From NCBI GenBank assembly GCA_018580065.1, contig GCA_018580065.1_4845.1: a stretch of 46,716 nt of DNA; one strand, written 5' to 3'. Under the pieces are notes generated by a model, which was not told the DNA's origin, did not search any database, and saw only the letters and a list, made by a program, of their open reading frames with translations. The DNA comes from a phage. This document shows positions 72 through 29,243 of this stretch, piece after piece (positions within the stretch are counted from its first letter, which is position 1; every line of letters starts with the position of its first letter). The translations under genes were made by a program, and so were the position numbers.

Positions 72-100
72 GTTTTGCATCCTGAATTTGACTGATGTTG

Positions 101-109
101 ATTATATCA
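101..109 (-). promoter_or_regulatory. late-type extended -10 promoter (TGATATAAT on minus strand)
   Basis: attatatca on plus strand is the reverse complement of TGATATAAT, about 30 nt upstream of the ATG at 71. Same 9-mer class precedes 8 other minus-strand genes. Confidence 0.45.
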
Positions 110-120: not shown

Positions 121-149
121 TTGACACCTGTGAGGCGGTGATGTAGATT
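121..149 (+). promoter_or_regulatory. sigma70-like promoter TTGACA-17-TAGATT
   Basis: TTGACA 121-126, 17-nt spacer, TAGATT 144-149. Drives the plus-strand cassette 185-1060. Contains the TGATGTAGATT motif. Confidence 0.6.
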
Positions 150-1857: not shown

Positions 1858-1886
1858 TTGACAGTGATTATTTTGTGGTGTAGATT
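1858..1886 (+). promoter_or_regulatory. sigma70-like promoter TTGACA-17-TAGATT
   Basis: TTGACA 1858-1863, 17-nt spacer, TAGATT 1881-1886. Near-duplicate of the promoter at 121-149. Confidence 0.6.
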
Positions 1887-5455: not shown

Positions 5456-5499
5456 TTGACGTAGATTGATGGTGTGTTTATAGTTAGTGACGTAGAAAC
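5456..5499 (+). promoter_or_regulatory. sigma70-like promoter TTGACG-17-TATAGT with two TGACGTAGA motifs
   Basis: TTGACG 5456-5461, TATAGT 5479-5484. Motif copies at 5457-5467 and 5488-5498, the second just downstream of the -10. Confidence 0.6.
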
Positions 5500-13541: not shown

Positions 13542-13739
13542 TCAACCGTTACTGGTTGAACTATAAACCACCGCAGATATAAGTTCGTCAGCCTTTTCAC
13601 GACCAGCAACCTCCGCTTCAAGCGCCAGTGAACACATGGCAGTTTCCACATACTTAATGGTGTCCTCGCGTACGTTAAGTATTTCCATAACCTCGCGCAC
13701 CTCTTTCTGATATCTCGCTGCTATTTCTTTGTATCGCAT
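13542..13739 (-). CDS. hypothetical early protein
   Basis: Start MRYKEIAARY at 13739, preceded by AAAGGTGA. First gene of the leftward operon. Confidence 0.55.
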   Translation of the reverse strand: MRYKEIAARYQKEVREVMEILNVREDTIKYVETAMCSLALEAEVAGREKADELISAVVYSSTSNG

Positions 13740-13750
13740 TTCCACATCAC

Positions 13751-13814
13751 CTTTTACGTTGTGGTACAATCTACGTCAATAAGTATTGACTATGTGACGT
13801 AGAAACGTCAAGAT
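13751..13814. promoter_or_regulatory. divergent promoter pair with TGACGTAGA motifs
   Basis: Minus strand: TTGACG (13779..13774)-17-TAAAAG. Plus strand: TTGACT 13786-13791-17-CAAGAT. Motif copies at 13768-13778 (minus) and 13795-13805 (plus). Confidence 0.5.
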
Positions 13815-13837: not shown

Positions 13838-14032
13838 ATGCCAAGACCACGACGCGAGCCGATGGACATTATCACCAGCATTGTGGAGAAGCGGCAGCCG
13901 CTGACACTCCGTGATGTTCGCTACTTTGCCCGTTGCTATGTGGCACTGGCTGATATGCCTAAAGATGAGATGTACCAGATGATTCGTGAGAATTTTAATG
14001 TTGATGAAAATAACCGGGTGACGATGAAATGA
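13838..14032 (+). CDS. hypothetical protein
   Basis: 64-aa ORF, GAAGGAG RBS. Confidence 0.65.
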   Translation: MPRPRREPMDIITSIVEKRQPLTLRDVRYFARCYVALADMPKDEMYQMIRENFNVDENNRVTMK

Positions 14033-16544: not shown

Positions 16545-16553
16545 CAATGGCTA

Positions 16554-16593
16554 TTGACGTAGATTGAGCGGTGGTGCATAGTATCTACATCAA
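16554..16593 (+). promoter_or_regulatory. sigma70-like promoter TTGACG-17-CATAGT flanked by inverted motif copies
   Basis: TTGACGTAGAT (16554-16564) and ATCTACATCAA (16583-16593) form an inverted repeat bracketing the -10. Confidence 0.55.
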
Positions 16594-16614
16594 GTGATGA
16601 GTGAGGTGATGAAG

Positions 16615-16836
16615 ATGGAAATAAAACTTAACAAAGAAAGTAATATGCTAAGTCTTACCGGGCAGGGCGAGATGGTGTTCACAAGGCTAAAAAATGGAAA
16701 TGAAACCGCAATAACAATGATATGTGAAGGAGCGAAAACTTCTGTTTCAAATATGTATCTGGTCAATTTGAAAGAGAAAACAAGGGTTGGTAGATTTCTC
16801 TCTGCGCTGAAGCATGTGTGGATTCTTGCCAAATGA
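16615..16836 (+). CDS. hypothetical protein
   Basis: ATG 16615 lies 8 nt after GAGG. 73 aa. Confidence 0.6.
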   Translation: MEIKLNKESNMLSLTGQGEMVFTRLKNGNETAITMICEGAKTSVSNMYLVNLKEKTRVGRFLSALKHVWILAK

Positions 16837-16846
16837 AGGTGTAATT

Positions 16847-16990
16847 ATGGTAATGGTCAAATTCAAAGAAAACGGACGCTGCGGAGTGTTCGGTCTTGAA
16901 CAAATCAAAATCCGTCCGTGCGGTAAAGTGGTTGCACCATTTGGTCTGGTGCAGATGCGTGAATGTGAGATCGTGGAATATATTAAGTGA
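16847..16990 (+). CDS. hypothetical 47-aa protein
   Basis: Hand translation MVMVKFKENGRCGVFGLEQIKIRPCGKVV... AAGGTG RBS. Confidence 0.45.
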   Translation: MVMVKFKENGRCGVFGLEQIKIRPCGKVVAPFGLVQMRECEIVEYIK

Positions 16991-16998
16991 GGTTAGAA

Positions 16999-17277
16999 AT
17001 GACAAAACGCGAATTACACCAATTATTTAACAAATGGCTTGATTCTGTTGGTTTTGGCGACATGAATGATAGAGAGAAGGACTTGCTTTGGTTTGGGTTT
17101 TCTGTTGGATATTGCCACGACAATAACAAGACCATGCTCGCAGCACTCCAGCAGCTTCTGGAAATCTACGACGACCATTCAGGAAAAGCCTGGACAACAT
17201 CAAGCAAGCGTCGTGCTCTGGATAATGCGCGCGATGCGGTTAATAAAGCGCTGGGGGAGCGCAATGAAACAATGTGA
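16999..17277 (+). CDS. hypothetical protein
   Basis: 92 aa from MTKRELHQLF. GAGGT RBS. Confidence 0.65.
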   Translation: MTKRELHQLFNKWLDSVGFGDMNDREKDLLWFGFSVGYCHDNNKTMLAALQQLLEIYDDHSGKAWTTSSKRRALDNARDAVNKALGERNETM

Positions 17278-17749
17278 TCTTTTCCGTGTTCTTAGTTATA
17301 ACCCTGAATCTGGTGAATTCACGTGGATTAAATCAAGAAGACATGGGTTTAGCGGTCGAAAGGCTGGGTCGGTAAATGGGAAAGGGTACATACAGATCTG
17401 CATTGATGGAAAGCTTTATCTTGCGCACAGGCTTGCTCTTCTATACGTGACAGGAGAGATGCCAAAGGAGGTGGATCATATTAACAGGGTGAGAGATGAC
17501 AATAGATTATGCAACTTAAGGCCATGCACTTCATCTGAAAATAAGCACAACAAGGATATCACATCCAGAAACAAAACAGGGATGAAGGGCGTCAGCTGGT
17601 ATCCTGCCGGAAATTCATGGCGAGTAAGGATATGCGTAAATAAAACACAGATTCATCTGGGCTACTACGAAGACATTGAGCTGGCAGAGCTTGTGTCGCA
17701 AGAGGCGAGAATTAAATACGCAGGAGATTTTAATTATGAAGCTTATTGA
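17264..17749 (+). CDS. HNH homing endonuclease (HNH_3 plus AP2-like domain)
   Basis: LAHRLALLYVTGEMPKEVDHINRVRDDNRLCNLR...N motif plus GVSWY...WRVRI AP2-like segment. Paralog of 6790-7281. Confidence 0.85.
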   Translation: MKQCDLFRVLSYNPESGEFTWIKSRRHGFSGRKAGSVNGKGYIQICIDGKLYLAHRLALLYVTGEMPKEVDHINRVRDDNRLCNLRPCTSSENKHNKDITSRNKTGMKGVSWYPAGNSWRVRICVNKTQIHLGYYEDIELAELVSQEARIKYAGDFNYEAY

Positions 17750-18371
17750 TTTACTGGTTAAAGAATTACCTAAGCGTGGCGGGTGGCCTGAGGGTGCCGT
17801 TGAGTGTCAACGATTTGTTGATGAGGCAACCATTGATTTTTACGATGAAAATGGCAACTGGGATGATGACTGCTCACTTACTTACGGCTCGATAGCGGTG
17901 GAACTCGTCAGAAAGCAGACGTACCCTTGCGAGAGCGAGCAAGTAACTCGCAAGCAATACGAATCCGCACTTGCAGCATCTCAAAAGCCAGCATGGAACG
18001 GCGAAGGTCTTCCGCCAGTTGGTGAGAAAGTTGAGTTCTTCATTAATCCAAAACTCGGATACAGAAACGCCTGGAATCCTGATGCTGGCACTGAAATGGA
18101 AGTGGTTGCACACAAGACAACAACGGATGGCAATAATGTGGCAGTTTGTTATTGGGATGAGCGCGGCGCAGGAAGGTCACACTGCTTCGTACCAGAAAGC
18201 CTAAAACCACCACGCTCAGAAGCAGAGCGCAAGCGTCATGAGGCAGCAGAATCCATTGACTTTTATATGCCGGAATTTATTACCGATACGCCAAATGAGT
18301 TTTACCACGCCAAAAAGATTTACGACGCCATCGCGGCAGGTAAGATTCCCGGCGTGAAACTGGAGGATTGA
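17736..18371 (+). CDS. hypothetical protein
   Basis: 211 aa. CAGGAG RBS 9 nt upstream. Confidence 0.7.
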   Translation: MKLIDLLVKELPKRGGWPEGAVECQRFVDEATIDFYDENGNWDDDCSLTYGSIAVELVRKQTYPCESEQVTRKQYESALAASQKPAWNGEGLPPVGEKVEFFINPKLGYRNAWNPDAGTEMEVVAHKTTTDGNNVAVCYWDERGAGRSHCFVPESLKPPRSEAERKRHEAAESIDFYMPEFITDTPNEFYHAKKIYDAIAAGKIPGVKLED

Positions 18372-18372
18372 T

Positions 18373-18501
18373 ATGTGGTTATTCCCGTTTCTTCTCGGTA
18401 TTGCGTGGTTTGTGATGTATATGTTTGGTGGTAATGATTTCGACGTGGTGATTGCAAATATATGGATGGCGACTAGCTTCATGCTTGCTAACAATAAATA
18501 A
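18373..18501 (+). CDS. 42-aa membrane peptide
   Basis: Hand translation MWLFPFLLGIAWFVMYMFGG... Starts 2 nt after the upstream stop. Followed by a terminator. Confidence 0.45.
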   Translation: MWLFPFLLGIAWFVMYMFGGNDFDVVIANIWMATSFMLANNK

Positions 18502-18505
18502 AACC

Positions 18506-18530
18506 AAGCCCTCACTTAGAGGGCTTTTTG
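18506..18530. terminator. rho-independent terminator between convergent genes
   Basis: Stem GCCCTC/GAGGGC, loop ACTTA, T5 run. Confidence 0.8.
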
Positions 18531-19433
18531 TTATTGCTCTGGTTTTCCTCCGAGCTTTCTAATAATTTCTGCAGCAACGCACGGATCAACATTAAAAAAT
18601 TCAGTCGCCCCATCGAAACCTGACAACCCAGCATTTAAGTCCTTTAGCTTTCTATGCGCAGCGCCTTCCGCTTTCCTTGCTTTGTAATAGCTTTCGAATG
18701 AGAACTGACACAACAAAGATATAGAAAGACCTGATTTTTTAGTTAGTTGCTGAATCCTTAGAGGAACGTTATTTGATAACCCTATCTTTATCATTCCATT
18801 TGCTTCCAACAAATAAACCATAGTCTTTTTGAATGGGTTTCTTCCTGCGCATTTTGCACACCCGTGCCCCTTGGCGTGATGGCCAGCAAACTGGCGAAAA
18901 CTGCCATGAATAGGGCATATTATTTCAACCATGCTATTCATGCCACTAAAAACTACCTCATCATATGAATATTTCCCGCCATGGGCCTCTTTGCATCTTG
19001 CTATGAAGGATTCTGTATCCATGCCGCCCTTTCCACTGCAAACCCTGCACCCAATATTCCCTCTCAAGTGATCTCTTGCTATTTGCTGGAATTCACCATG
19101 TTTTTTGCACCTTATGGTTATCATTGACAGCATTCCAGAGTATTTGGTTGGTGAATAATCATAAATATCATGGTTTTTACTGGGAATCATATCCATAAAC
19201 TCATCATGACTGTACCCGTTATGCATTCCCCTGCCGGGCCTGCACTTTCTGCATCCGTTGCAACCGTTGAGGTGATCATTTGGCGTCTGTTTAAATAACA
19301 CATCATGCTTAATACATCTGATTATTACTGGCGATTTCCTTTTGATGTATTTAGTTTCTGAATAGTCAAATTTATCGCCGTGGATTAACTTAGCGCGTGA
19401 AATGAAATCTTCTGTGGTAGGTCTTTTTGCCAT
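18531..19433 (-). CDS. T5orf172-domain putative homing endonuclease with three tandem zinc-ribbon repeats
   Basis: Three ~58-aa repeats (F...A...HG.KYDYS...I.C..HG.F.Q....HL.G.GC..C), then the C-terminal VYLLEANGMIKIGLSNN...EFF T5orf172-like domain. AT-rich. Own promoter. Confidence 0.75.
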   Translation of the reverse strand: MAKRPTTEDFISRAKLIHGDKFDYSETKYIKRKSPVIIRCIKHDVLFKQTPNDHLNGCNGCRKCRPGRGMHNGYSHDEFMDMIPSKNHDIYDYSPTKYSGMLSMITIRCKKHGEFQQIARDHLRGNIGCRVCSGKGGMDTESFIARCKEAHGGKYSYDEVVFSGMNSMVEIICPIHGSFRQFAGHHAKGHGCAKCAGRNPFKKTMVYLLEANGMIKIGLSNNVPLRIQQLTKKSGLSISLLCQFSFESYYKARKAEGAAHRKLKDLNAGLSGFDGATEFFNVDPCVAAEIIRKLGGKPEQ

Positions 19434-19522
19434 TATTAACCCCGTAGCAGGTTCGTAGATTGAGGATTGCAGCAGGGTGTCTACGTTCACCTTTTCGTCT
19501 GGCCGGACTAGCTGCAATTGAG

Positions 19523-19531
19523 ATTATATCA
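19523..19531 (-). promoter_or_regulatory. late-type extended -10 promoter (TGATATAAT)
   Basis: Reverse complement AGTGATATAAT, overlapping the stop of the MuF-like gene, upstream of 19433. Confidence 0.4.
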
Positions 19532-20485
19532 CTTTGCCTTGTGAGCTGAAAGCCACTTATCTCTCGCTGATATCATCCTGTCAAGAGAAGATTCAAGCAT
19601 GATCACATTACCATTTTCATCTAATAGGCATGGCGTTTGACCACAATGGCACCGAAATCTATTTCCGTCCTTGCTGTAAAACTCCTCCACCTGTTCTGGC
19701 GAGTACGCCTTAGAGTGTCTGATGGCGTGAGTTTGTCTGGTTGTTGGTAATAGCGCCGACACCCAAAATAGGGCACTATTTAGCCCCAAAATAATCTTTG
19801 ATTCCTGAACTTCGTCAGACTGCGACTTGCGTAAAATGCCCGTAAGCTCGGTTTGGGCAATGTTTTTTGCTCGCGATTCACTTACACCAACGCGCTTAAT
19901 GATGTCTGATTCAATATCTCTCGGATTAGAACCAACAGCGATAGCATTCATGATCACCTGAGACAAATCATTACGTGCCGCGTCTCCAATTCCAACCCAA
20001 TCGCTGTAAGTGGAGGCATTGGCAATAGACAGGCGCTGCAAATATGGCTCAGAGTAAATAATGTCTGCAATTGAACGGCGCTCAGCATAGAGTGGAGACA
20101 TGGCTGCCAGTTGCTGTTGCGCCTCAACCGTACCAGCTGAATAGGCGTCAGAGACATAAATTGACATCCAGAACTGACCAGCATCCATTGGCTGAGTATC
20201 ATCAAGCAGTATTTCATCAATTAGCTGTTGCAGCGCCTCATTAAATTGAGCTGCCCTAGCGGCTGAAAAATCATACCTGTAACCATAGGCATCAATGGAG
20301 TTAATTGCGGCAACTGGAATTGACCTGAATAAGTCTATGACTGACGATTTAAGGCGCTTGTATCGCGCCTCAATCTGTTTGTTTGCCTTGCTTAGTCTCC
20401 TGTTAGCGCCAACAGGGTCTGTTTTGCTGGTTGGTATCTTCGGGCCAACCAGTCTGGCGCTAACCTTAAAGATTTTGATTTTCAT
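19529..20485 (-). CDS. head morphogenesis protein (SPP1 gp7 / Mu F-like)
   Basis: 318 aa from MKIKIFKV. Position immediately after the portal. Family-like C-terminal R.H...RCHCG region. Confidence 0.7.
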
Positions 20486-21869
20486 CGTCAGGATTACCCT
20501 CTGTGACGATCTGAATTTCTTCAATCGGCTCCATGCCAACCATGCCGCGAGCCTCATCGACAGTTAACAGCGCAGACTGACCAGCATCAAAGAATGACTT
20601 GTTCGCAGTGGCCAGTTTGGCTAGCAACTCCGCTTTATCCAGTTCCGATGGTGCCAGCAGGTCATCCCACTTAACTTTGTAGCCATTTTCTGGTGCTTTA
20701 TCGACAATGCCGAACTGAATCATGCGCTCAACAAACATTGAAATGACATAATCAACCCATGTTTCGCGGCGTTGTTTGGCGGTCATCGCCTCCTGCATCT
20801 TGTCTTCATCGCTTGCAAGGCGCCCTGTCTGCTGCCCGAAAATGACGGTGAACGGAAGCGCCATAGATGCAGCGAACTGGTTGGCAGCAACTTCCCATGT
20901 TGGTTTCGGATCGGCTGGCGCCACAGCGAGAACCTTTGCGTCAGCGCCCATTGTGAACATGGCGGCGTCGATGCCTGAGTTCAGCGCCTCAATGTTCTCA
21001 TTCATGATGTCGGTGAGTTCTTCGATGTCGACACCCATCGACTGAGCGAGACTTGCTGGTGTTACATTATCCTCCGTATAGTTAACAGCCAGTTGGCGGC
21101 TTGCATTCTTCAGGAATCCTTCTGCGGAGCTACCGGAAACCTTAGCCATGTCGATAAGGCTGTTGTAGCCAGCACGCAACATCGGGACGCCACTGAACAT
21201 GCTGCCGTCAAAGCTCCCCTCCGCCAGAATAATGATGCGGTCAGGGTGAATCTGCACGGAACGCTCAGGCTTGCCGTCGCTGTCGAAGTCTTCCACGGCG
21301 CTTTCCTGATATTCGTACATCTCAGGCATTCCGTAGTCTTCGCTGGTTTCGTCGTTATTCCACGCACTGACTTTGAGCTGCTCCTCCCATACCGGAATAA
21401 AGCGGACGATGGATTTATCTTTAATGCGGCGTGTTTTTGTGATGTCTACCGGTTCACTCCATTGCTTACCATCGCGGATTTGCAGGATGACGGCGGAATA
21501 GCGGTTGATGGCGTTGCGCTTGTCGGCCTCCTTGATGAACGGATAGGCACGCTTCATCATGCCGTTGATGGACAGTTCCCACGACGTAGAGTTCTTGTCA
21601 TCCTCGCCATCTTCGACCACCTCTGGGTACTTCTGCCAGCATTTATTAATAATGCGGTTAATGCCAGCTGCGGCGGCAGGATGTCGCTCGTAGGCGTAGC
21701 GGAACATCTCAGCGGTGATTTCCTGCGGGTAGCCGCATTCCGTCCAGAGTCTGTCGTGCTTCTGGTCAAGATTCTTCCCACCAGCACAAAGCCGTTGCTG
21801 CTGAATAGCCCGGTTATTGTTCGCCACGCGGTCGCGTATGTAGGCGTTTAAAGCATCAATTTTGGACAT
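20466..21869 (-). CDS. portal protein
   Basis: 467-aa ORF between the terminase region and the MuF-like gene. Size and acidic C-terminus typical of portals. Confidence 0.8.
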
Positions 21870-21880
21870 ATGTCACCAAT

Positions 21881-21905
21881 AAAAAAACCCATCACGTTGG
21901 ATGGG
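21881..21905 (-). terminator. rho-independent terminator upstream of portal gene
   Basis: On the minus strand: CCCATC-CAACGT-GATGGG followed by T7. Confidence 0.7.
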
Positions 21906-21914
21906 ATTATAGCA
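21906..21914 (-). promoter_or_regulatory. late-type extended -10 promoter (TGCTATAAT) abutting the terminator hairpin
   Basis: Reverse complement ATGCTATAAT. The predicted start site falls inside the hairpin at 21905-21888. Confidence 0.45.
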
Positions 21915-21919
21915 TGGTA

Positions 21920-22126
21920 TCAATAGTCGAAGGCTCGCCTGTGCATCGTGGCGTTACTGTGATGGAATACAACATTTTCCATCCTATCCCCTAGCACCAA
22001 CCCTCTGCATTTTGCGTAAATCTGATACTGCTTATTATTGAATTTATCATGACTATCAAACCAGATGCCCTCAAACCTTTTTCTAAGTTCAACAGCCATC
22101 TCGTGAAGATGTTTTCTGTCCATCAC
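21920..22126 (-). CDS. hypothetical protein
   Basis: 68-aa ORF, coupled to the upstream gene. Confidence 0.55.
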   Translation of the reverse strand: MMDRKHLHEMAVELRKRFEGIWFDSHDKFNNKQYQIYAKCRGLVLGDRMENVVFHHSNATMHRRAFDY

Positions 22127-22308
22127 TCCACCTTTTCCAGTTTATCAATGATAACGTCGTAGCCCTTTATTTCGTACTTTGCAACCAATTCGCAACCCAA
22201 AAACCAATCGAACGCTTCATTGGCGTTAGATGTCGTGGCTGTCGCGCAAACCTTGGTAACAACTTCACCACCATCAAGCACTTCAGCATGAATAAAATAA
22301 ACGCTCAT
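22123..22308 (-). CDS. hypothetical protein
   Basis: 61 aa from the ATG at 22308. TGATG overlap with the upstream ORF. Confidence 0.55.
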   Translation of the reverse strand: MSVYFIHAEVLDGGEVVTKVCATATTSNANEAFDWFLGCELVAKYEIKGYDVIIDKLEKVE

Positions 22309-22478
22309 CACTCAATCTCCTCACCATCAACCCAGCGTTGCAGGACTTCGATTAGCTGCATGGCTTGGTGTTTGTCAATAATAATAGCGTTATGACCCTG
22401 AGTAATCATTGGATTAAACTTGAAATCAACAGCTATTGTGCACATTGGCGTTTTTGTTTCGTCTTCAATAACAATCAT
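22308..22478 (-). CDS. hypothetical 56-aa protein
   Basis: Hand translation MIVIEDETKTPMCTIAVDFKFNPMITQGHNAIIID... Confidence 0.45.
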   Translation of the reverse strand: MIVIEDETKTPMCTIAVDFKFNPMITQGHNAIIIDKHQAMQLIEVLQRWVDGEEIE

Positions 22479-22487
22479 CACATCACC

Positions 22488-22895
22488 TCAACAAAGCTCA
22501 CCATCAGTTATCATCAATAACTTCTGCCATTTAGCTACCGGCTTGCACAACTCAGACTTCAACCTGCTTAACGAGCCTGTAATATCAGACCATTCGGCAA
22601 ACGGAACGAATCGCACAAACCGGTAGTCAGCTCCAGCCCAGTGCCAGCCAAGCGTGTAGTCGATGTATGTGCCGTCTGACTGCATGTTTATGTAATGTGC
22701 AGTCACAGACTTATCATCAATCACCACAACCTCAACCACTGCGCACGAACTTCCGTCACGCGCCCTGTTCACTGCATTCAGATGACAGGCGTGATTGTAC
22801 AGGCCAGTACCATCAATGAATGATATATCAATCTTTTTGGTGTATTTCTTATCCGCAGCGTCGCGGATTATTTTCTTTAATTTATCCCTGAACAT
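22488..22895 (-). CDS. hypothetical protein
   Basis: 135 aa from MFRDKLKKIIRD. Confidence 0.6.
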   Translation of the reverse strand: MFRDKLKKIIRDAADKKYTKKIDISFIDGTGLYNHACHLNAVNRARDGSSCAVVEVVVIDDKSVTAHYINMQSDGTYIDYTLGWHWAGADYRFVRFVPFAEWSDITGSLSRLKSELCKPVAKWQKLLMITDGELC

Positions 22896-23085
22896 GATTA
22901 ATCCACCATGCGGCAATGGCTGAGAAAATCCACAATCCGATAACAAGTCTGAAAACCTGCCAGTTTAGAATGTCATCAATGCTTGGTGCTTCCCATCTAA
23001 TCAACCAGATAAGCGGAAAAGCAATCGCTAGTGCAATGGTGTACTTAATACCAATAAACAGAAAATCTCTCACAAAATCTCTCAT
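22882..23085 (-). CDS. membrane protein (two TM)
   Basis: 67 aa with two hydrophobic segments. Confidence 0.6.
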   Translation of the reverse strand: MRDFVRDFLFIGIKYTIALAIAFPLIWLIRWEAPSIDDILNWQVFRLVIGLWIFSAIAAWWINHVQG

Positions 23086-23100
23086 ATCACCCTCTCAAAA

Positions 23101-23298
23101 TCAGTTAACCATATAGTAAATATCATCACGAGCAAACTCGTCAGCATCCTCCTGGCATTCAATTGCAACATCCTCATCGTAATATGATGCTAACTGCCGC
23201 GCCGTAGCTCTGCGTTTTTTCTTGCTATTGCGCATATCTCTGAACACGCACAGTTCTTTATCATAAGCCCGGACCATTCTTTTCATTATGCTTTTCAT
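23101..23298 (-). CDS. hypothetical protein, basic N-terminus and acidic C-terminus
   Basis: 65-aa ORF. Confidence 0.55.
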   Translation of the reverse strand: MKSIMKRMVRAYDKELCVFRDMRNSKKKRRATARQLASYYDEDVAIECQEDADEFARDDIYYMVN

Positions 23299-23302
23299 GT
23301 TT

Positions 23303-23509
23303 TCACCCTCTCAAAAAATCATTCTTGCAGCAGATACCTTTATATCCGCGCTTCTCTTGCAGGTTAACGAAAACATCATCAATAACACGCAGCAGAAAAT
23401 CCTCGTCAATATCATACCGACGACAAATCACATCATCAGGAACACCAGCTCGTGCCAGGGAATAAACCTGCTCTTTTTCCTCCTGTGTGAATCCTGCATA
23501 GCTGCGCAT
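23303..23509 (-). CDS. hypothetical protein, possible HTH
   Basis: 68 aa from MRSYAGFTQEEKEQVYSLARAGVPDDVICRRY. GGAG RBS. First gene of the leftward operon. Confidence 0.55.
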   Translation of the reverse strand: MRSYAGFTQEEKEQVYSLARAGVPDDVICRRYDIDEDFLLRVIDDVFVNLQEKRGYKGICCKNDFLRG

Positions 23510-23529
23510 AGTGATATCTCCGATAAACC

Positions 23530-23636
23530 TGATGTAGATTATACTATGCGCTCGGTGTAGATTGGTCAAGTGTGGTGATGCAGATTTATCAACAACAATA
23601 ATAAATGTTGACGTAGATATGTTGGTGACGTAGAAT
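23530..23636. promoter_or_regulatory. divergent control region with five direct copies of the TGAYGTAGAWW motif
   Basis: Copies at 23530, 23553, 23576, 23609 and 23626. Leftward TTGACC-17-TAGTAT (23569..23541) and rightward TTGACG-17-TAGAAT (23608-23636). Confidence 0.6.
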
Positions 23637-23670
23637 CATCTTATCGAAAAGAGATTAAGGAACAAGAGAA

Positions 23671-23826
23671 ATGTTTGAGACTAAAAAAGAATGCGAAGCG
23701 TACATTGCCGAAACTTATGGTGCTGACTACGTTAAATTTGGCATCGTTACCGCCCAGAAAGTTGGCTCAACAGTCGCCAAGATGCTTGGCATCAAAGAAG
23801 GTTACTACCCATCAAATGCCTACTAA
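23671..23826 (+). CDS. hypothetical 51-aa protein
   Basis: Hand translation MFETKKECEAYIAETYGADYVKFGIVTAQKVG... Different frame from the ORF-track ORF 23675-24028. Confidence 0.5.
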   Translation: MFETKKECEAYIAETYGADYVKFGIVTAQKVGSTVAKMLGIKEGYYPSNAY

Positions 23827-23830
23827 TTAC

Positions 23831-24028
23831 ATGCCAAGATGCCTTCGTGAAATACCGAAGTCGAAAGTGAAACCAAGTAATCAAGCGATAAGGGAGGCAA
23901 AGATTGAGGCTTTCAATATTGCCATTTCGATAATAAAAGACAGATGCAGAGATGAAAAGTCTGAGCGCGTTAAATCGAACATGTATGCAGCTGTGAGTGA
24001 TATATCCAGATTGAGAGATGAGCTTTAA
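23831..24028 (+). CDS. hypothetical protein
   Basis: 65 aa from MPRCLREIPK (alternative ATG at 23816). No clear RBS. Followed by a terminator. Confidence 0.45.
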   Translation: MPRCLREIPKSKVKPSNQAIREAKIEAFNIAISIIKDRCRDEKSERVKSNMYAAVSDISRLRDEL

Positions 24029-24054
24029 GCCCTCGATTGAGGGCTTTATTTTTA
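24027..24054. terminator. rho-independent terminator between convergent genes
   Basis: Stem AAGCCCTC/GAGGGCTT, loop GATT, T-rich tail. Confidence 0.8.
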
Positions 24055-25476
24055 TCGCCTGCGCCGGATTAGCATCCCGCTACCGCGCTGTACGATGTGG
24101 TCATTGAGTGCGTAGCGAACCGCATCCCAATAGTGGTTGTATGCATCAACAATATCAGTCAGCACATTCCCAGTCAGCTTATCAACCTTATAGCTGTACA
24201 TTGCAGCCTCATTCTGCATTTCCTTGCATCGCTCGTGGATGACAATGCTGTCACATCCGCGCAGCCATGTTACGCCATCTTCAACGCTACCCGGCCATTT
24301 TGTGCATGGATGAATATCAAATCCAGAGCGCTTAATATGGCTAATGGTTTCGGGTCGAGCACAGTCGGCATACCATCTTGCGCGTTTAGCCATCGGGAAT
24401 GATTGCTCCATCGCGGCTGGTGTATCGGTAATCTCAAGGCCAACCTTGCCATACTCGCGATTAATATAAATGTTGCGTCGTCCACCTGGTAATTCTTCAA
24501 TGTAAACCTCAACCATTGCGGTAGGATCGGTGGAAAACCCGAAGTCCATCCCGAAATATGGACCATGCCATTCAGGCTTAACCTCAAAGTTATCAATGCG
24601 CCATTTTCCGCCGAATACCTGCTCGTCGCTGCGTTTGTTGAATGCTCCCATCCAAATCCAGCGATAACGGTCGTAATCAGTTCGCTTCATTTGCTCCATA
24701 GCGGACGGCAGGGGAGTGTCCCAGAACCACGGGTTGTCTGAATAGTTACATTCGATAATCAGAATTTCATCGTTTTCGAATATGCCATCAACCATCTGCG
24801 AGTGATAAGGCGCAATCCAGTTTTTCCACGTCGGGTCTGTTTCCTTGTTTGGGTTGAATGAGCACCACAACTCGGAATTGGCGGCACGGATGGTAGGCAC
24901 AAGAATATCCCAGCTTGTCTGGCTGACGTTCTCTGCTTCCTCTACCCAACCAACGGTAATGCCAGCGAAGCCCTTAACGGTTGTCTGATTGCGATACAGC
25001 CCCTTGAAGCGAAACTTCGCTTTGGTCTTCTTGTGTGTTATCTCGTTGTTGATAACGCGAAACTCTGCCGATTCACCCTTCCGGGCTATCTCATCAACAA
25101 GTTCCTGATAGCTTGAATCCTCAATGGATTGCTGAATCTCACGAAAGCAAGCAAAGCGGTCAGGTCGAAACCTTGCGCGCTCGGTAAGGATAGTGATAAT
25201 TGTTCTCGTCTTCCCTGACCCACGGCCACCATAGACGAACTTGAATCGTTTGGGGTAAAGCAGTCGCTCCAGTTTTGCGGGAATCAGGTGGTCGGCATGA
25301 GTGGTTGCATTGGTCACGTCATCAACGCCAGTAGCGGTCATCCTTAACCGCTTGATGACGTTTTTCTGCATGTCGCAGATACCAAAGATGGCAGACTCTG
25401 CAACATCTGTCATTGCATCATCAATCTGCGCTTCCAGCTTTTCTATTGCCAGTGCAGAGAGGCGTTTACGAGCCAT
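24052..25476 (-). CDS. terL: terminase large subunit
   Basis: 474 aa from MARKRLSAL. Walker A YGGRGSGKT. C-terminal nuclease-like region. Follows the small subunit. Confidence 0.9.
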   Translation of the reverse strand: MARKRLSALAIEKLEAQIDDAMTDVAESAIFGICDMQKNVIKRLRMTATGVDDVTNATTHADHLIPAKLERLLYPKRFKFVYGGRGSGKTRTIITILTERARFRPDRFACFREIQQSIEDSSYQELVDEIARKGESAEFRVINNEITHKKTKAKFRFKGLYRNQTTVKGFAGITVGWVEEAENVSQTSWDILVPTIRAANSELWCSFNPNKETDPTWKNWIAPYHSQMVDGIFENDEILIIECNYSDNPWFWDTPLPSAMEQMKRTDYDRYRWIWMGAFNKRSDEQVFGGKWRIDNFEVKPEWHGPYFGMDFGFSTDPTAMVEVYIEELPGGRRNIYINREYGKVGLEITDTPAAMEQSFPMAKRARWYADCARPETISHIKRSGFDIHPCTKWPGSVEDGVTWLRGCDSIVIHERCKEMQNEAAMYSYKVDKLTGNVLTDIVDAYNHYWDAVRYALNDHIVQRGSGMLIRRRR

Positions 25477-25609
25477 TGGTTGGCTCCTGAAGAATGTCGG
25501 CCACCTCCTCATCACTCATTGACTCATCAAACACAACGTCTCGCTCATCTCCGCTGCGCAGAAGAATCACCTCATCACATCTTTGTTTATAATAAACTGA
25601 ATCATCCAT
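25466..25609 (-). CDS. hypothetical acidic 47-aa protein between terS and terL
   Basis: The ATG overlaps the terS stop codon region (ATG 25609..25607, stop 25604..25602). The ORF ends 11 nt inside terL. Confidence 0.45.
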   Translation of the reverse strand: MDDSVYYKQRCDEVILLRSGDERDVVFDESMSDEEVADILQEPTNGS

Positions 25610-26021
25610 TCTGCTGCTCCAGTAGTTTCTCCAGCCGCTCAAGTCTCGCGGCGAGTTCAGTAACTTCGGCAATATCCAGCCCTGTCCTGATAACCTCGGC
25701 AAATGTCTTACCAATGTCCACAGGTATAACACCAGCGGCTATACCTCGAATGACGGCGTCAATCTTCTGCACCGGAGTTCCGTCATCAGGGAAGTCCACC
25801 TCAAACACTGGGGCAACTGGTTTAGGTAGCGGACTGAATCGAACGATAAGCTCCTTCATCATTGCGGTGTCACGCTCAATCATTGCCATCTCAATGATGG
25901 TGTCATAGAGCTTTTCTTCGCTAAATCCCTTTCTCTCAAGAGCTTCAACAAGCAGCTTACGCTTATCTTTCCCGCGTTTGTTTTGTGGTTGATTTTCTTT
26001 ACTGAATAGCTTTTTAGCCAT
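25602..26021 (-). CDS. terS: terminase small subunit (putative)
   Basis: 139 aa. Basic N-terminus (KENQPQNKRGKDKRK), C-terminal coiled coil. Directly upstream of terL. Confidence 0.7.
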   Translation of the reverse strand: MAKKLFSKENQPQNKRGKDKRKLLVEALERKGFSEEKLYDTIIEMAMIERDTAMMKELIVRFSPLPKPVAPVFEVDFPDDGTPVQKIDAVIRGIAAGVIPVDIGKTFAEVIRTGLDIAEVTELAARLERLEKLLEQQNG

Positions 26022-26064
26022 AGATAAAACCTATCAATATTCCGCTATTTTTCCGTTATTCGAT

Positions 26065-26085
26065 ATTGTAACAGATTCTACACCA
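26065..26085 (-). promoter_or_regulatory. late-type extended -10 promoter (TGTTACAAT) preceded by a TGGTGTAGAAT motif
   Basis: Minus strand reads GGTGTAGAATCTGTTACAAT, about 44 nt upstream of the terS ATG. Confidence 0.45.
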
Positions 26086-26098
26086 TAGCGTTAATGGC

Positions 26099-26124
26099 AA
26101 AAAAAGAACCCGCACGGGGCGGGC
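26099..26124 (-). terminator. rho-independent terminator ending the leftward early operon
   Basis: Minus strand: CCCGC...GCGGG stem followed by TTCTTTTTTT. Confidence 0.7.
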
Positions 26125-26169
26125 CAAAGGTTGGGTGATGATATGAGGAAAGCAATGGTGGTTATGCGT

Positions 26170-26343
26170 TTATTGTACACCATGATTATCACGCTTGCCA
26201 GCATAGCACCACGCGTTTTCTGTTCTGGTCTGCACATGAACGATTTCAAGCGCATCAGGAAATGTTTTGGCGACCTTAGCGATAAAATCGTCCAGCTCGT
26301 GCTGTTTTGCGAGTTGCCAGACTTTCTGTTTAGTGGTTTGCAT
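26170..26343 (-). CDS. hypothetical 57-aa protein
   Basis: Start MQTTKQKVWQ at 26343. Confidence 0.5.
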   Translation of the reverse strand: MQTTKQKVWQLAKQHELDDFIAKVAKTFPDALEIVHVQTRTENAWCYAGKRDNHGVQ

Positions 26344-26509
26344 TAGCAAAAGCCCTCGTTGAGCACATACACTTAATGTCATGTACCCCAGTATCAGGAA
26401 CAACCTCAATGTAATTTCCGAGCTGAACCATCATGTAGTGACACGTCATGCCGCCGTCCCAGTAGCGTTTCCACATGAATTCCATTGCGGAGTTGATGTC
26501 ATTAAACAT
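26330..26509 (-). CDS. hypothetical 59-aa protein
   Basis: Start MFNDINSAMEF at 26509. Confidence 0.5.
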   Translation of the reverse strand: MFNDINSAMEFMWKRYWDGGMTCHYMMVQLGNYIEVVPDTGVHDIKCMCSTRAFANANH

Positions 26510-26609
26510 AATGCACAACTCCTGCAATAGCTGCCATCAGTGTCAGCACATAGACAGCAAGAAAGATTTTAGCGCCAGGGGTGTATCGGCTTCGTTGGTG
26601 TCTGGTCAT
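26502..26609 (-). CDS. 35-aa membrane peptide
   Basis: Hand translation MTRHQRSRYTPGAKIFLAVYVLTLMAAIAGVVHYV. GGAG RBS. Confidence 0.4.
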   Translation of the reverse strand: MTRHQRSRYTPGAKIFLAVYVLTLMAAIAGVVHYV

Positions 26610-26672
26610 TTGCATGTCTCCACTAAAGCGTGCGCCACGTAGAGCGCACTGATAATTAACATTAACGGGTAG

Positions 26673-26975
26673 CTATTCACTTTTAGCCAGGCTTTCGAAT
26701 TGCTGGTTGGTAGTGTCGAACTGAACCATCTTGACAACATCGTCGAACATGACAAATTCTCCTTCATGGTCTTCAGCCATGTCAGCACAGAAGTTCGGAC
26801 TTAATGGGTCGCAACCACCAGTATTAAGCTCGTATCGCTTCAGGTTTGCGATATTTGATAAATTCAGCGCCAGTACAGCAAGGTCATAAACCTCATCAGC
26901 GGTATACCCGGCACCATGCCCATACATTTCAATACGGGATATGATTTCTTCTACACGTTGTTTTGTGATTGTCAT
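26673..26975 (-). CDS. hypothetical protein
   Basis: 100-aa ORF. Confidence 0.65.
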   Translation of the reverse strand: MTITKQRVEEIISRIEMYGHGAGYTADEVYDLAVLALNLSNIANLKRYELNTGGCDPLSPNFCADMAEDHEGEFVMFDDVVKMVQFDTTNQQFESLAKSE

Positions 26976-27205
26976 ACCCTAACCCCCATAATTTCTTCGT
27001 AATAACCATCCTCTTCAAACTCAATCTTTGCGATTGTGAGCGCATCCTCATCAGTGATGTCAATCGCTTTGAATTTGCACTTTGCCAGCACTATGCATCC
27101 TGACAAGATTAGCCACTTATTCCACCATCGCACTCGCCTGATTGTTTTGCTGTCATACATTTTATTCTGCACTATCCAGAACTCGTATGTTTTTACTTTT
27201 GCCAT
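26972..27205 (-). CDS. hypothetical protein
   Basis: 77-aa ORF, coupled to the downstream gene. Confidence 0.6.
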   Translation of the reverse strand: MAKVKTYEFWIVQNKMYDSKTIRRVRWWNKWLILSGCIVLAKCKFKAIDITDEDALTIAKIEFEEDGYYEEIMGVRV

Positions 27206-27241
27206 ATCATCACCATTAAAAATAAGAATGCTGAATCGTGT

Positions 27242-27424
27242 TCAGAACACGATAATTAGCTCATCCATTACTCTTCGCTTACCTTCACCATTGAACACGC
27301 GCACAACGCGATTCACACGGATAGATTCCATTGCATTGCGTGCCTGCTTGCTCATAAAGTTCTGCGCGCCAACGCGACCGAGTTCTGGTTCCAGCTTCTC
27401 GCGACGATAGATAGTCTTTGCCAT
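27242..27424 (-). CDS. hypothetical basic protein
   Basis: 60-aa ORF. Confidence 0.55.
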   Translation of the reverse strand: MAKTIYRREKLEPELGRVGAQNFMSKQARNAMESIRVNRVVRVFNGEGKRRVMDELIIVF

Positions 27425-27427
27425 TTG

Positions 27428-27586
27428 TTATTTCTCCACGTGCGCCTGATACATTGCTTGCCAGATGAAAACAACAGTGTCACTCATCTCATCATCTGTC
27501 ATGCACTCAACATCAATATTTTCCATAAGTTCATGGATGCCAGCTTCAATCATTTCTTCTGTTGGTTGGATTGGTTTGTTGCTCAT
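27428..27586 (-). CDS. hypothetical acidic 52-aa protein
   Basis: Hand translation MSNKPIQPTEEMIEAGIHELMENIDVECMTDDEMS... GAGG RBS. Confidence 0.45.
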   Translation of the reverse strand: MSNKPIQPTEEMIEAGIHELMENIDVECMTDDEMSDTVVFIWQAMYQAHVEK

Positions 27587-27590
27587 TTTG

Positions 27591-27671
27591 TTAAGCCTCA
27601 TAAGAGTTAATGATTGCCTTGATGCGACGACGATACCACTGCATGATGTGTTCGTTATGCCAGTTACTCAT
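27591..27671 (-). CDS. 26-aa peptide
   Basis: Hand translation MSNWHNEHIMQWYRRRIKAIINSYEA. GGGAG RBS. Confidence 0.3.
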   Translation of the reverse strand: MSNWHNEHIMQWYRRRIKAIINSYEA

Positions 27672-27673
27672 TG

Positions 27674-27769
27674 TTACTCCCTATACCCTGATTTAGAAAC
27701 TGCCACTGCGATAATGATGAACGCCACGATAACCAGACTGGCGATAAGCTCGAATGATGCGCCTGTCAT
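27674..27769 (-). CDS. 31-aa membrane peptide
   Basis: Hand translation MTGASFELIASLVIVAFIIIAVAVSKSGYRE. ATGA coupling with the upstream gene. Confidence 0.35.
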   Translation of the reverse strand: MTGASFELIASLVIVAFIIIAVAVSKSGYRE

Positions 27770-27912
27770 TTACCTAACCCATACGCCGAGATTAAAGCCT
27801 GCATTGCTGCGTTCCAGAATGCTTCTGCAGGAATACTGTTATTTGTGCGCTCAACTGCAATGCGCGCCATAGCCTGTGCATCTTTAAATTCTTCGCGGTC
27901 TTTAATTTTCAT
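27766..27912 (-). CDS. hypothetical 48-aa protein, first gene of the leftward early operon
   Basis: Hand translation MKIKDREEFKDAQAMARIAVERTNNSIPAEAFW... GAAGGT RBS. Confidence 0.45.
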   Translation of the reverse strand: MKIKDREEFKDAQAMARIAVERTNNSIPAEAFWNAAMQALISAYGLGK

Positions 27913-27942
27913 ACCTTCACCCTCGTTTGTTTCGATGAGTTC

Positions 27943-27971
27943 AATCTACATCAGTTGTGATTCTACGTCAA
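27943..27971 (-). promoter_or_regulatory. sigma70-like promoter TTGACG-17-TAGATT (minus strand) with two motif copies
   Basis: Minus strand: TTGACGTAGAATCACAACTGATGTAGATT. Motif copies at 27960-27970 and 27943-27953. Confidence 0.6.
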
Positions 27972-28137
27972 CATGCAGAGAAAGAAAAAGCACTACCAAA
28001 TGTTAGTTAATGCTAGCCAACATATATAGTTACATATATTACTAATAGTAACCTTTGTTTATTACCTCTATAAAGTATATTAAGATCTTCTTTATATTTA
28101 TTGTAGATATTAATACCTTACGCTACAGAAACACGAA

Positions 28138-28164
28138 AACCAGCAGTTAAGCTGGTTATTTTTT
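28138..28164 (+). terminator. terminator-like hairpin at the edge of the putative origin
   Basis: Stem AACCAGC/GCTGGTT, loop AGTTAA, then A plus T6. No upstream CDS on the plus strand. Confidence 0.5.
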
Positions 28165-28185
28165 AGTGGTTTTTAGTGTTTTTTG

Positions 28186-28545
28186 GCTTCCCGCGCTTCC
28201 CTGAATTCCCTGGAAGCATTTTTTTCTTTGTTTTCAGTAGCTTCTGAGTGTTTTTTGTATCGCTTCCCGCCTCCCAAGAAAATAATTTTTGAATTTTAAA
28301 ACTCTCAATTTTTTTCGAAAATCTTCCCGGGAAGCGGGAAGTTGGGAAGCGACGACTTAAATAATTGATTTTCCTGTATTTTCGCTTCCCAAGCTGTTTT
28401 GGTTTTTTGGAAGCAAAGCTATTGAAAATAAAAGAAAAATTACCCCTCTGGTAAGCGTTATACTCCTGTTGGAGTGTGCTGTCAACCAGCCGCACGGAAC
28501 AAAGATCATCCCCGTGTAAATGTGTTTGACTAGCTTCCTTTTTCC
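28186..28545. repeat. iteron array GCTTCCC/GGGAAGC (putative replication origin)
   Basis: 7-mer or close variants at 28186, 28195, 28206, 28212(inv), 28262, 28269, 28322, 28329(inv), 28336(inv), 28344(inv), 28384, 28409(inv) and 28533. Interspersed T-tracts. AT-rich block 27990-28135 alongside. Directly upstream of the replication genes. Confidence 0.6.
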
Positions 28546-28554
28546 CTTTATTCT
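28526..28554 (+). promoter_or_regulatory. candidate promoter TTGACT-17-TATTCT for the replication operon
   Basis: TTGACT 28526-28531, TATTCT 28549-28554, upstream of 28582. Confidence 0.4.
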
Positions 28555-28581
28555 TTTTTTTATCAAACAAGAAGTGGAGAA

Positions 28582-28809
28582 ATGGCGATGAGCAAAGAAT
28601 ACCGATTTGGCAGTGCGATTGGCGAGGTCTGGGATTTTGTGCGTGATATGTTGGTTGGTGATCGTAAGGAGTTTAAATTTGATGAGTTTACCGCTAATGA
28701 AGGATTAAGGGGATTCAGAGTGAACCTTCATAAGGTTGCAGTGCGGAACGGATGGATGTTTAAAACGCGAGCTAAGGAGGGTGGCTTGTGGGTAAAACGG
28801 ATTAAGTGA
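28582..28809 (+). CDS. hypothetical small protein, paralog of the C-terminus of the next gene
   Basis: 75 aa (alternative ATG at 28588). Shares the pattern F.FD[DE]F...LR..L.[KR]V....F......V[KR][RV].K with 28821-29243. Confidence 0.65.
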   Translation: MAMSKEYRFGSAIGEVWDFVRDMLVGDRKEFKFDEFTANEGLRGFRVNLHKVAVRNGWMFKTRAKEGGLWVKRIK

Positions 28810-28820
28810 GGTGTTTGGAT

Positions 28821-29243
28821 ATGAAAAGGTACTACATTGAGGCAATTGGGGCTGATGGTAAAAAGTTATATGCCAGCGGTAGATGTGGTTTTCTGCATGA
28901 TTTTACCTATGCGAAGTTTTTCAAAACAATAGAGGAGGCTGAGGGGTATATGGCGTGGCGGAAGCCTCATCTCCCATGTGAAATAAAATGCAAGGAGCAA
29001 AGGGTAAAAAAACGGTCTGCGTCTCAGGTGGAACAAAAAACGACAATGGAGGGAGAAGCTAGAAACTTCGTCTACCGCCTTGGTTTGGATAAGGGAAAGC
29101 ATTTTGTGTTTGATGATTTTAAGTTGATAAAGAGCATTGATCAGTTGAGAACTTCCCTTGACAGGGTGGGTAAGAAGCTGCAAAAAAAATTCAGTGTCAA
29201 TATGGTTGCGCGTAATACCGCTTATGTGGTGAGGGTTAAATGA
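28821..29243 (+). CDS. hypothetical protein with C-terminal domain paralogous to 28582-28809
   Basis: 140 aa from MKRYYIEAIG. GAGGTG RBS. Confidence 0.65.
   Translation: MKRYYIEAIGADGKKLYASGRCGFLHDFTYAKFFKTIEEAEGYMAWRKPHLPCEIKCKEQRVKKRSASQVEQKTTMEGEARNFVYRLGLDKGKHFVFDDFKLIKSIDQLRTSLDRVGKKLQKKFSVNMVARNTAYVVRVK

Follow-up and report, generated by a model that had tools for sequence, protein, structure and literature searches.

A dispersed, asymmetric 11-nt motif in the sigma-70-type promoters of a Skatevirus-like phage as the candidate operator of a phage regulator

The stretch of phage DNA analysed here (contig GCA_018580065.1_4845.1 of GenBank assembly GCA_018580065.1; the window, 46,716 nt in full) carries in its intergenic DNA a recurrent 11-nt motif, TGAYGTAGAWW, which lies within sigma-70-type promoters and could well be the operator of a phage-encoded regulator. 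Megablast identified the window as a Swiduovirus/Skatevirus-like siphophage, with ~87-95% identity in the shared parts to swi2, C1, SeSz-2, DS8, LPST10, Bas81 and seszw. A gene of the tail operon (a homologue of Bas81_0070, DUF6246-like) is split over the window ends, with its start codon at 78-80 on the minus strand and the rest at 46083-46715, and because of this the window is read as a circular permutation of a complete 46.7-kb genome, with the gene modules of its clade. The true first intergenic region is accordingly 81-184 and not 1-184. The structural and lysis genes occupy the minus strand, and between them stand numerous short operons of small genes, on either strand.

The densest cluster of the motif is found at 23530-23636 and consists of five direct copies with spacings of 23, 23, 33 and 17 nt, exactly as a preliminary description of the sequence had it. 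Beside it lies the gene for p68 (23303..23509, minus strand), an acidic 68-aa protein with three predicted helices, which is the first gene of a leftward operon. The cluster comprises a dual rightward promoter and three copies inverted with respect to the promoter of the p68 operon. The rightward promoter, TTGACG-17-TAGAAT (23608..23636, plus strand), has one copy as its -35 (23609-23619) and another as its -10 (23626-23636), and would drive 23671-24028. The other three copies (23530..23586, plus strand) are 23 bp apart, those at 23530, 23553 (CGGTGTAGATT) and 23576 (TGATGCAGATT) having zero, two and one mismatches, respectively. They overlie the leftward promoter TTGACC-17-TAGTAT (23569 to 23541, minus strand), and are located over its +1, in its spacer and just upstream of its -35.

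In the whole window there are 12 exact matches to TGAYGTAGAWW where 0.22 are expected, and none of 100 shuffled sequences reached 12; allowing up to one mismatch gives 24 matches against 6.2 expected. By a gene map based on tblastn of the annotated Bas81 and swi2 proteins, together with long open reading frames (ORFs), 8.3% of the window is non-coding. This fraction holds all 12 exact copies (binomial P ~1e-13) and 17 of the 24 matches with up to one mismatch, the other seven, inside genes, being the number expected by chance. An unsupervised count of 8-mers in the non-coding DNA ranks GACGTAGA/CTACGTCA first, and eight of the ten genomic copies of GACGTAGA are non-coding. A chance origin of the motif is excluded. 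The preliminary description had placed all copies between genes and had named equal frequency inside genes as the observation that would speak against the motif; the intergenic location is borne out by the 12 exact copies, and the genic matches, all with one mismatch, do not exceed chance. Its tally of 16 copies needs adjustment, as 12 are exact and four carry one mismatch (1876, TGGTGTAGATT; 23576; 26075, TGGTGTAGAAT) or two (23553), and two further degenerate copies had been overlooked, at 93-103 on the plus strand (TGATGTTGATT) and at 13739-13749 on the minus strand (TGATGTGGAAA). The total is thus 12 exact and six degenerate copies, every one of them non-coding.

In being short, non-palindromic, repeated more than ten times and confined to promoters and intergenic DNA, the motif resembles the dispersed asymmetric repressor operators of phages such as P1 (C1) and L5 (gp71). 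A pac site, an iteron array of a replication origin or a centromere is unlikely, since the copies are at promoters all round the genome, and an RNA-level element is unlikely, since copies at the -35 are not transcribed from their own promoters. The only match in an Rfam scan was the tRNA.

The motif is built into promoters of the sigma-70 type, in either orientation: it supplies the -35 (T+TGACG) or the -10 (TAGAWT), or it covers the start site or the spacer. A position relative to a sigma-70-like promoter of 17-bp spacing can be assigned to all copies. TTGACN-17-(T/C)ANNN(T/G) describes nine of the sites bearing the motif, six of which were also returned by a consensus scan of 13000-29000, and the general pattern of a TTGACA-like -35, a spacer of 17±1 and TAnnnT is present. 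The extended -10 (TGn at -15/-14) is not provided by the motif; in TGAYG|TAGATT a TG stands at -17/-16, with another at -14/-13 where the form is TGATG, out of the extended -10 register. The copies fall into four classes: in class A the T+TGACG of the motif is the -35 (5457, 13768(-), 16555, 23609 and 27960(-)); in class B its TAGAWT is the -10 (139, 1876, 23626 and 27943(-)); in class C a copy follows the -10 and lies over the expected start, either direct (5488 and 13739(-)) or inverted (16582(-) and 23530); and in class D the copy is in the spacer or upstream (23553, 23576, 13795 and 26075(-)). Overlap with the -35 and -10 hexamers and copies just 3' of the -10 had already been noted in the preliminary description, and both features are as described.

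The promoter TTGACA-17-TAGATT at 121..149 (plus strand) has the copy at 139-149 (TGATGTAGATT) as its -10 and would drive 185-1060, which the homology map assigns to small membrane and superinfection-immunity-type genes. The degenerate copy at 93..103 (plus strand, one mismatch) overlaps the -10/+1 of the leftward extended -10 promoter of the tail operon. A second TTGACA-17-TAGATT promoter (1858..1886, plus strand), with the one-mismatch copy at 1876-1886 as its -10, points towards tRNA-Met (2327-2403), ~440 nt away. The sole conserved ORF between this promoter and the tRNA (1916-2227) is on the opposite strand, and the layout suggests a long leader or an antisense transcript. At 5456..5498 (plus strand) the promoter TTGACG-17-TATAGT has the copy at 5457-5467 as its -35 and a second direct copy (5488-5498, TGACGTAGAAA) over its predicted start, and would drive an operon with anti-restriction-like, ParB-like, HNH and RusA genes. 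These two copies are invariant in six genomes except for one substitution in Bas81 (TGGCGTAGAAA), and the spacer varies.

Motif scanning and promoter geometry place three copies in a divergent promoter region at 13739..13814. The copy at 13768-13778 (minus strand) is the -35 of a leftward TTGACG-17-TAAAAG promoter, downstream of whose -10 lies the degenerate copy at 13739-13749. The third copy, at 13795-13805 (plus strand), is in the spacer of a rightward TTGACT-17-CAAGAT promoter, whose unit starts with the gene for a 64-aa protein, p64, and is part of the palindrome TGACGTAGAAACGTCA. This perfect palindrome, TGACGT-AGAA-ACGTCA at 13795-13810, where a terminator scan called a hairpin, is not conserved, and relatives carry TGATGTAGATTGGTCAA instead. 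The promoter TTGACG-17-CATAGT (16554..16592, plus strand) has the copy at 16555-16565 as its -35 and an inverted copy (16582-16592, minus strand) abutting its -10, which is the inverted pair at 16554-16593 already reported. The remaining dual-copy promoter, TTGACG-17-TAGATT (27943..27971, minus strand), has 27960-27970 as its -35 and 27943-27953 as its -10 and would drive the leftward small-gene operon 27912-26173. In both dual promoters (23608-23636 and 27971-27943) the two copies are exactly 17 bp apart as -35 and -10; reading the sequence around the unused half of each copy revealed no partner hexamers at 16-18 bp and no overlapping promoters.

Several observations argue that the motif is read by something besides RNA polymerase. 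TTGACG occurs 32 times in the window and is followed by TAGA in five of these (~0.13 expected), while 10 of the 30 occurrences of TAGAWT are preceded by TGRYG (~0.12 expected). The bases that the motif adds to the hexamers are at approximately -29 to -25 and -17 to -13, where sigma-70 polymerase shows hardly any preference for particular bases. The motif is found over +1 (5488, 13739, 16582 and 23530) or in spacers (23553 and 26075) as well, direct or inverted, and the copies over +1 read TAGAAA, which is unusable as a -10, yet retain TGACGTAGA. Copies not used as a -10 often have GTGGA for GTAGA (TGATGTGGATT, TGACGTGGATT, TGAAGTGGATA and TGATGTGGAAA), and copies that serve as a -10 never lose A7 (GTAGA) in the genomes compared. 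Such a pattern would be expected if the word were under constraint from two readers, sigma-70 at the hexamers and another everywhere.

Conservation within the promoters points the same way. At 5456-5498, 16554-16592 and 27943-27971 both copies and the -10 are invariant or nearly so in up to six genomes, and the intervening 6-11 nt differ; at 27943-27971 both copies are invariant and the 6-nt spacer varies among genomes. Across eight promoter regions the conservation of motif columns is 0.91 versus 0.79 for other non-coding columns (Mann-Whitney p = 3e-10). The earlier suggestion that the pattern reflects more than recognition by RNA polymerase is therefore upheld by the integrity of the motif in all positions, its conservation while spacers vary and the drift of the non -10 copies. 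On the same three grounds, the operator of a phage regulator is the best reading of the motif.

The motif is not peculiar to the window. Exact copies number 13 in swi2 (compared over its 37-kb part only), 12 in Bas81, 13 in Citrobacter phage K1M, nine in Klebsiella phage MK54 and 11 in the reduced genome seszw_290L, against ~0.2 expected. They are located at orthologous intergenic sites and promoters, and the motif is conserved at orthologous promoters down to ~50% protein identity. The dual-copy pattern of 23608..23636 was found in 79 IMG/VR stretches, about three quarters of which are on contigs of 44-51 kb, the genome size of the clade, the rest being shorter and presumably partial. Two variants of the motif, a TGAYG-type and a GG-type, occur among the lineages. 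In more distant relatives, the IMG/VR locus L006 and Yersinia phage P400, the repeated word is (C/G)GGTAGATT, which is the right part of the motif only; L006 has eight GGTAGATT in 20 kb compared to 0.7 expected. In both, the word usually occupies the -10, and the leader (T)CATCGAAAC frequently comes after it. No copy of the motif was found in Erwinia phage 59, a temperate lambdoid phage with related structural genes. The deepest layer therefore appears to be the -10 G+TAGATT with its leader, the full 11-mer being that of the Skatevirus/Roufvirus branch. From these comparisons, TGAYGT(A/G)GAWW is best explained as a cis-regulatory site common to the whole Skatevirus/Swiduovirus/Roufvirus-like clade.

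A leader (T)CATCGAAAC(AAAC)GAG after the -10 TAGATT is present in the window at 150-170, 23637-23660 and 27915-27942, and among distant relatives in L006 at 535-560 and in L008 at 4715-4745 and 23890-23925. The conserved (T)CATCGAAAC could represent a shared 5' leader, a translation signal or the inheritance of whole promoter cassettes.

With moderate confidence, the motif is taken to be the operator of a phage DNA-binding protein that blocks the promoters in which it lies. From the statistics, geometry, conservation and phyletic patterns observed we infer binding of the motif by a protein, the identity of that protein and its repressive effect. The left half of the motif mimics a -35 (T+TGACG) and the right half a -10 (TAGATT), such that one word can be fitted to either hexamer, to the start or to the spacer. 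On phage entry the host sigma-70 polymerase would fire the motif promoters unaided. A small, phage-encoded, sequence-specific DNA-binding protein made from one of these promoters would then occupy the 11-mers and thereby keep polymerase off the -35, -10 or start site on which each of them lies. The expected outcome is the joint shut-down of approximately ten operons together with autoregulation of the regulator's own operon, while the structural and lysis operons, whose extended -10 promoters have no site, would escape and stay active.

Four points weigh against such an operator. The deepest conservation is that of G+TAGATT at the -10, L006 and P400 having (C/G)GGTAGATT and not TGAYGTAGATT, and part of the signal is thus simply the -10 that the clade prefers. 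Almost every copy also makes sense as part of a good sigma-70 promoter in which the spacing is the ideal 17 bp. The literature search found no binding, start-site or timing data for any member of the clade. The last point concerns the two proteins most closely associated with the motif: proteins without DNA-binding activity, the cullin WHB domains for example, share the winged-helix fold predicted for p64; p68 is acidic (isoelectric point, pI, 5.0), with helices rich in Asp/Glu in all homologues and non-significant fold matches; and both co-vary with phylogeny, such that co-occurrence does not separate them from other clade-specific genes.

The candidate favoured as the binder is p64 (13838..14032, plus strand, with its 64 codons at 13838-14029), a basic 64-aa protein (pI 9.0) with an invariant N-terminal MPRPRR arm, which was absent from the candidates listed in the preliminary description. 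Its predicted structure is a confident winged-helix model with the order H1-S1-H2-H3-S2-wing-S3 expected of that fold. Homologues of p64 are present in 207 phage records and those of p68 in 206, with the same distribution as the motif, and in every lineage examined the two genes are the first downstream of motif pairs or clusters. Motif copies are always just upstream of p68: three direct copies in the window, and inverted pairs in L006 and P400, where the p68 homologues are ~33% and 31% identical, respectively. The sites are CCGGTAGATTGCGGTAAACTACCGG in L006 and CCTATCTACCC-N24-GGGTAGATAGG in P400. Neither protein has a match in Pfam or NCBIfam, or to MotA or AsiA; the N-terminal domain of MotA came up only as a non-significant Foldseek match (rank 14, E 0.77).

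The p68 protein is at least 95% identical in ~150 of the 206 records, its identity being 50-66% in the Klebsiella, Citrobacter and Aeromonas branch, and an exhaustive search of 1.8 billion representatives placed the family in 15 clusters. It had been put forward earlier as a winged helix-turn-helix (HTH) binder. The model is instead a confident three-helix bundle without a wing (predicted local distance difference test score, pLDDT, 83), and the protein is acidic; there was no significant Foldseek match, the best, non-significant ones being to HTH domains, and no sequence match in the PDB. By position and co-occurrence p68 stays a candidate, either as binder or as a factor directed at RNA polymerase. 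The most likely binder is p64, with p68 as the second choice or as its partner. The two are inseparable by computation because both track the clade, and covariation cannot assign the binder because both candidates, like everything else, co-vary with the two motif variants.

The other proteins proposed as binders in the preliminary description do not hold up. The Cro/YdaS-like protein (32791-33030), which does have a real HTH, lies in a module specific to the window and is excluded because it has no homologue in Bas81, K1M, MK54, seszw_290L or the 37-kb part of swi2, relatives that carry 9-13 exact copies. The MarR-like protein (162 aa, 12564-13052), the other supposed winged HTH, is conserved in most relatives; it is an unlikely general reader, since seszw_290L is viable after deletion of its gene and still has 11 exact copies, and since it is absent from P400, which has the motif core. 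The proposal of a phage regulator as such remains the best reading, given that the motif extends beyond the polymerase hexamers; it is its named Cro/YdaS-like and MarR-like candidates that find no support.

The CiPGr study (PMC9825161) presents seszw_290L (MZ375351.1) as a viable 36.5-kb genome-reduced mutant. By our comparison it keeps p68, p64, the ParB-like gene and the 11 exact copies and has lost the MarR-like gene. At the orthologue of the 16554-16582 promoter, a deletion has taken out the spacer together with part of the first copy of the motif.

Three other explanations were weighed against a repressing operator. A possible but doubtful one is that the motif is a promoter consensus and nothing more, namely the clade's way of writing strong sigma-70 promoters (TTGACG and G+TAGATT) with no separate protein reader, its uniformity being kept up by shared ancestry, by the duplication of promoter cassettes and by selection on the binding of polymerase. 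Nine promoters do fit TTGACN-17-TANNNT with the motif on a hexamer, TAGATT is known as a functional -10, for example in lambda PRM, and the deepest conservation, G+TAGATT followed by the leader (T)CATCGAAAC in the window, L006 and P400, suggests that promoter-plus-leader cassettes were inherited. This explanation, however, does not account for TAGAWW after the -35 or TGAYG before the -10, for copies that are over +1, in spacers or inverted, for the three extra copies on the p68 promoter, or for the restriction of A7 to G tolerance to the non -10 copies; nor does it account for fixed copies with varying spacers, as copying of cassettes would bring the spacers along.

Positive control, in which a phage factor recruits or redirects the host polymerase in the manner of T4 MotA with AsiA, is unlikely. 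On this view p64 would be the DNA-binding activator and p68 the factor directed at polymerase or sigma, and the promoters with the motif would work as middle or as dual early/middle promoters. The copies that overlap the -35 span approximately -35 to -25 and are centred near -30, which is where the T4 MotA box sits; two small signature proteins, a basic winged helix (p64) and an acidic helical protein (p68), co-occur with the motif; and the structural operons use -35-independent extended -10 promoters, the class that in T4 survives the block of sigma region 4 by AsiA. Against this, the motif promoters already have a near-consensus -35, unlike T4 middle promoters, copies at the -10, at +1 or inverted do not suit an activator at -30, p64 and p68 have no sequence match to MotA, AsiA or any Pfam/NCBIfam family, and the MotA N-terminal domain is only a non-significant Foldseek match. 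A further scheme, which we consider quite unlikely, is that the element is a composite operator, a -35 mimic fused to a -10 mimic, at which a p64 monomer competes with sigma-70 on either hexamer and p68 acts in an AsiA-like way against -35 recognition, which would switch the phage to its extended -10 structural promoters; if true, this would be a T4-type sigma-directed temporal switch that evolved independently in small siphoviruses. Very improbable is a different reader altogether, be it a host transcription factor, the MarR-like protein or the ParB/KorB-like protein in the role of a KorB-style global repressor. Above-threshold Pfam matches give the ParB-like protein (5981-6787) HTH_ParB and KorB domains; its identity within the clade is 81-100%, and it is encoded in an operon with a two-copy promoter. 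Plasmid RK2 has some dozen dispersed operators under the control of its KorB, and the MarR-like protein is conserved in most relatives. P400, however, has the GGTAGATT core and no ParB-like or MarR-like homologue, Erwinia phage 59 lacks the motif and has a ParB-like protein of 46% identity, and the loss of the MarR-like gene from seszw_290L left 11 exact copies in place. The motif is also asymmetric, unlike KorB and parS sites, and with a distribution that does not match that of the ParB-like gene it does not qualify as a ParB/KorB operator or parS; no enterobacterial factor is known to have the motif's consensus.

Repression by a phage protein remains the preferred reading. The claim that the motif marks every early-type promoter is overstated. 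The predicted promoters of the window's replication module (28526-28554 and a divergent pair at ~33080-33140) have TTGACG -35s and no motif, and one copy lies in the terminase promoter, which does not serve an early function; in relatives with the usual replication module, the promoters of that module do carry the motif. By its distribution, the motif marks a -35/-10 class that drives non-structural operons, which fits the label of early-type in spirit.

A second class consists of extended -10 promoters, TGNTA[T/G]AAT, with no -35 and no motif. There are seven matches, all on the minus strand, which is that of the structural genes, and six of them are in or beside short gaps just upstream of structural or lysis operons. 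These are at 101-109 (TGATATAAT), upstream of the tail operon; at 1843-1851, upstream of the major tail gene; at 11232-11240, upstream of the head genes and inside a conserved 40-aa ORF; at 16536-16544, upstream of the lysis genes; at 19523-19531, upstream of a leftward gene ending at 19517; and at 21906-21914, upstream of the portal gene. Several are back to back with motif promoters. The terminase-operon promoter (26065..26094, minus strand), TTAACG-18-TACAAT with an upstream TG (TGtTACAAT), is of the extended -10 type, yet the one-mismatch copy at 26075-26085 lies in its spacer. Terminator-like hairpins are located immediately before the portal (21888-21905) and terminase (26107-26125) operons (within 21870-21919 and 26095-26130), and expression of both operons therefore needs the adjacent extended -10 promoters or read-through. 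The extended -10 TGTGATAGAAT of this class recurs in the distant locus L006, near 18380.

The replication module of the window (28582-37743) encodes Prim-Pol/PriCT-2/DUF3987, AAA_24, Sipho_Gp157, DUF669 and DUF3268 proteins, a helicase and the Cro/YdaS-like protein. It stands in place of the primase/helicase/exonuclease VIII/recombinase module found in swi2, Bas81 and seszw, and a comparable Prim-Pol module is present in Yersinia phage P400. Just upstream of the window's module, a non-coding gap of 669 nt (27913-28581) contains, at 28160-28400, at least nine GCTTCCC/GGGAAGC heptamers in both orientations with T-rich spacers, and all five copies of CGCTTCCC are non-coding. By its sequence this array looks like the iterons of a replication origin. 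No integrase or CI-type/immunity repressor is annotated in swi2 (37-kb part), Bas81, K1M or MK54, and relatives are described as lytic in the titles of papers; the window-specific module is replicative, and the motif does not appear to serve prophage immunity in a temperate phage.

Literature searches for the literal sequence of the motif, including TGACGTAGA, returned only primers and unrelated uses and no description of it, and those by genus name brought up neither a promoter nor a transcriptome study, nor any transcription programme described for the clade. The motif most likely belongs to a phage control circuit of a familiar kind, a description of which for the Skatevirus-like group was not found in the literature searched. 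Skatevirus- and Roufvirus-like phages are widely isolated as biocontrol or therapy candidates against Salmonella, E. coli, Shigella and Klebsiella. The analysis provides a testable map, comprising about ten sigma-70 promoters with the motif, a second, extended -10 class and two small signature proteins that may govern the change from one class to the other. Of the relatives, seszw has already been genome-reduced and Bas81 is in the published BASEL collection. If correct, the operator would explain temporal control in the clade and offer a compact repressor/operator pair with graded promoters for phage engineering.

Among known systems, the motif can be compared with the operators of P1 C1, L5 gp71, RK2 KorB and T4 MotA. 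T4 middle promoters likewise have a phage-specific word near -30, keep the sigma-70 -10 and resemble the present case in having small phage proteins as candidate readers. The motif promoters are nevertheless not of the MotA-box type, as they have a consensus -35 and as copies of the word are also seen at the -10, over +1 and in inverted orientation; no MotA or AsiA homologue was found, and p64 and p68 match no Pfam or NCBIfam family. In RK2, KorB acts on about a dozen dispersed OB operators at or near promoters, and a protein with ParB/KorB domains is encoded in the window; unlike the motif, OB is palindromic, and the distribution of the motif does not track the ParB-like gene. The stoperators of L5 gp71 are asymmetric 13-bp sites, one of which overlaps a promoter hexamer, and like the motif they have a -35-like TTGAC core, many copies in short intergenic regions and mostly the orientation of transcription. 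They differ in being mainly elongation blocks inside the operons of a temperate phage, whereas the copies described here are nearly all in promoter cores, with none in short intra-operon gaps, and in host, sequence and protein. The C1 operators of P1 are asymmetric 17-bp sites dispersed over the genome of an enterobacterial phage; P1 is temperate and C1 is its immunity repressor. Like the motif, they are short, non-palindromic sites in more than 10 copies that overlap the promoters of many operons, singly or in pairs and in either orientation, and unlike P1 the present clade is described as lytic, has an unrelated site sequence and has candidate binders with no sequence relation to named repressor families. 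By analogy, the operators of P1 C1 and L5 gp71 appear to be the closest in logic to the motif, and KorB/OB and the T4 MotA boxes resemble it more loosely.

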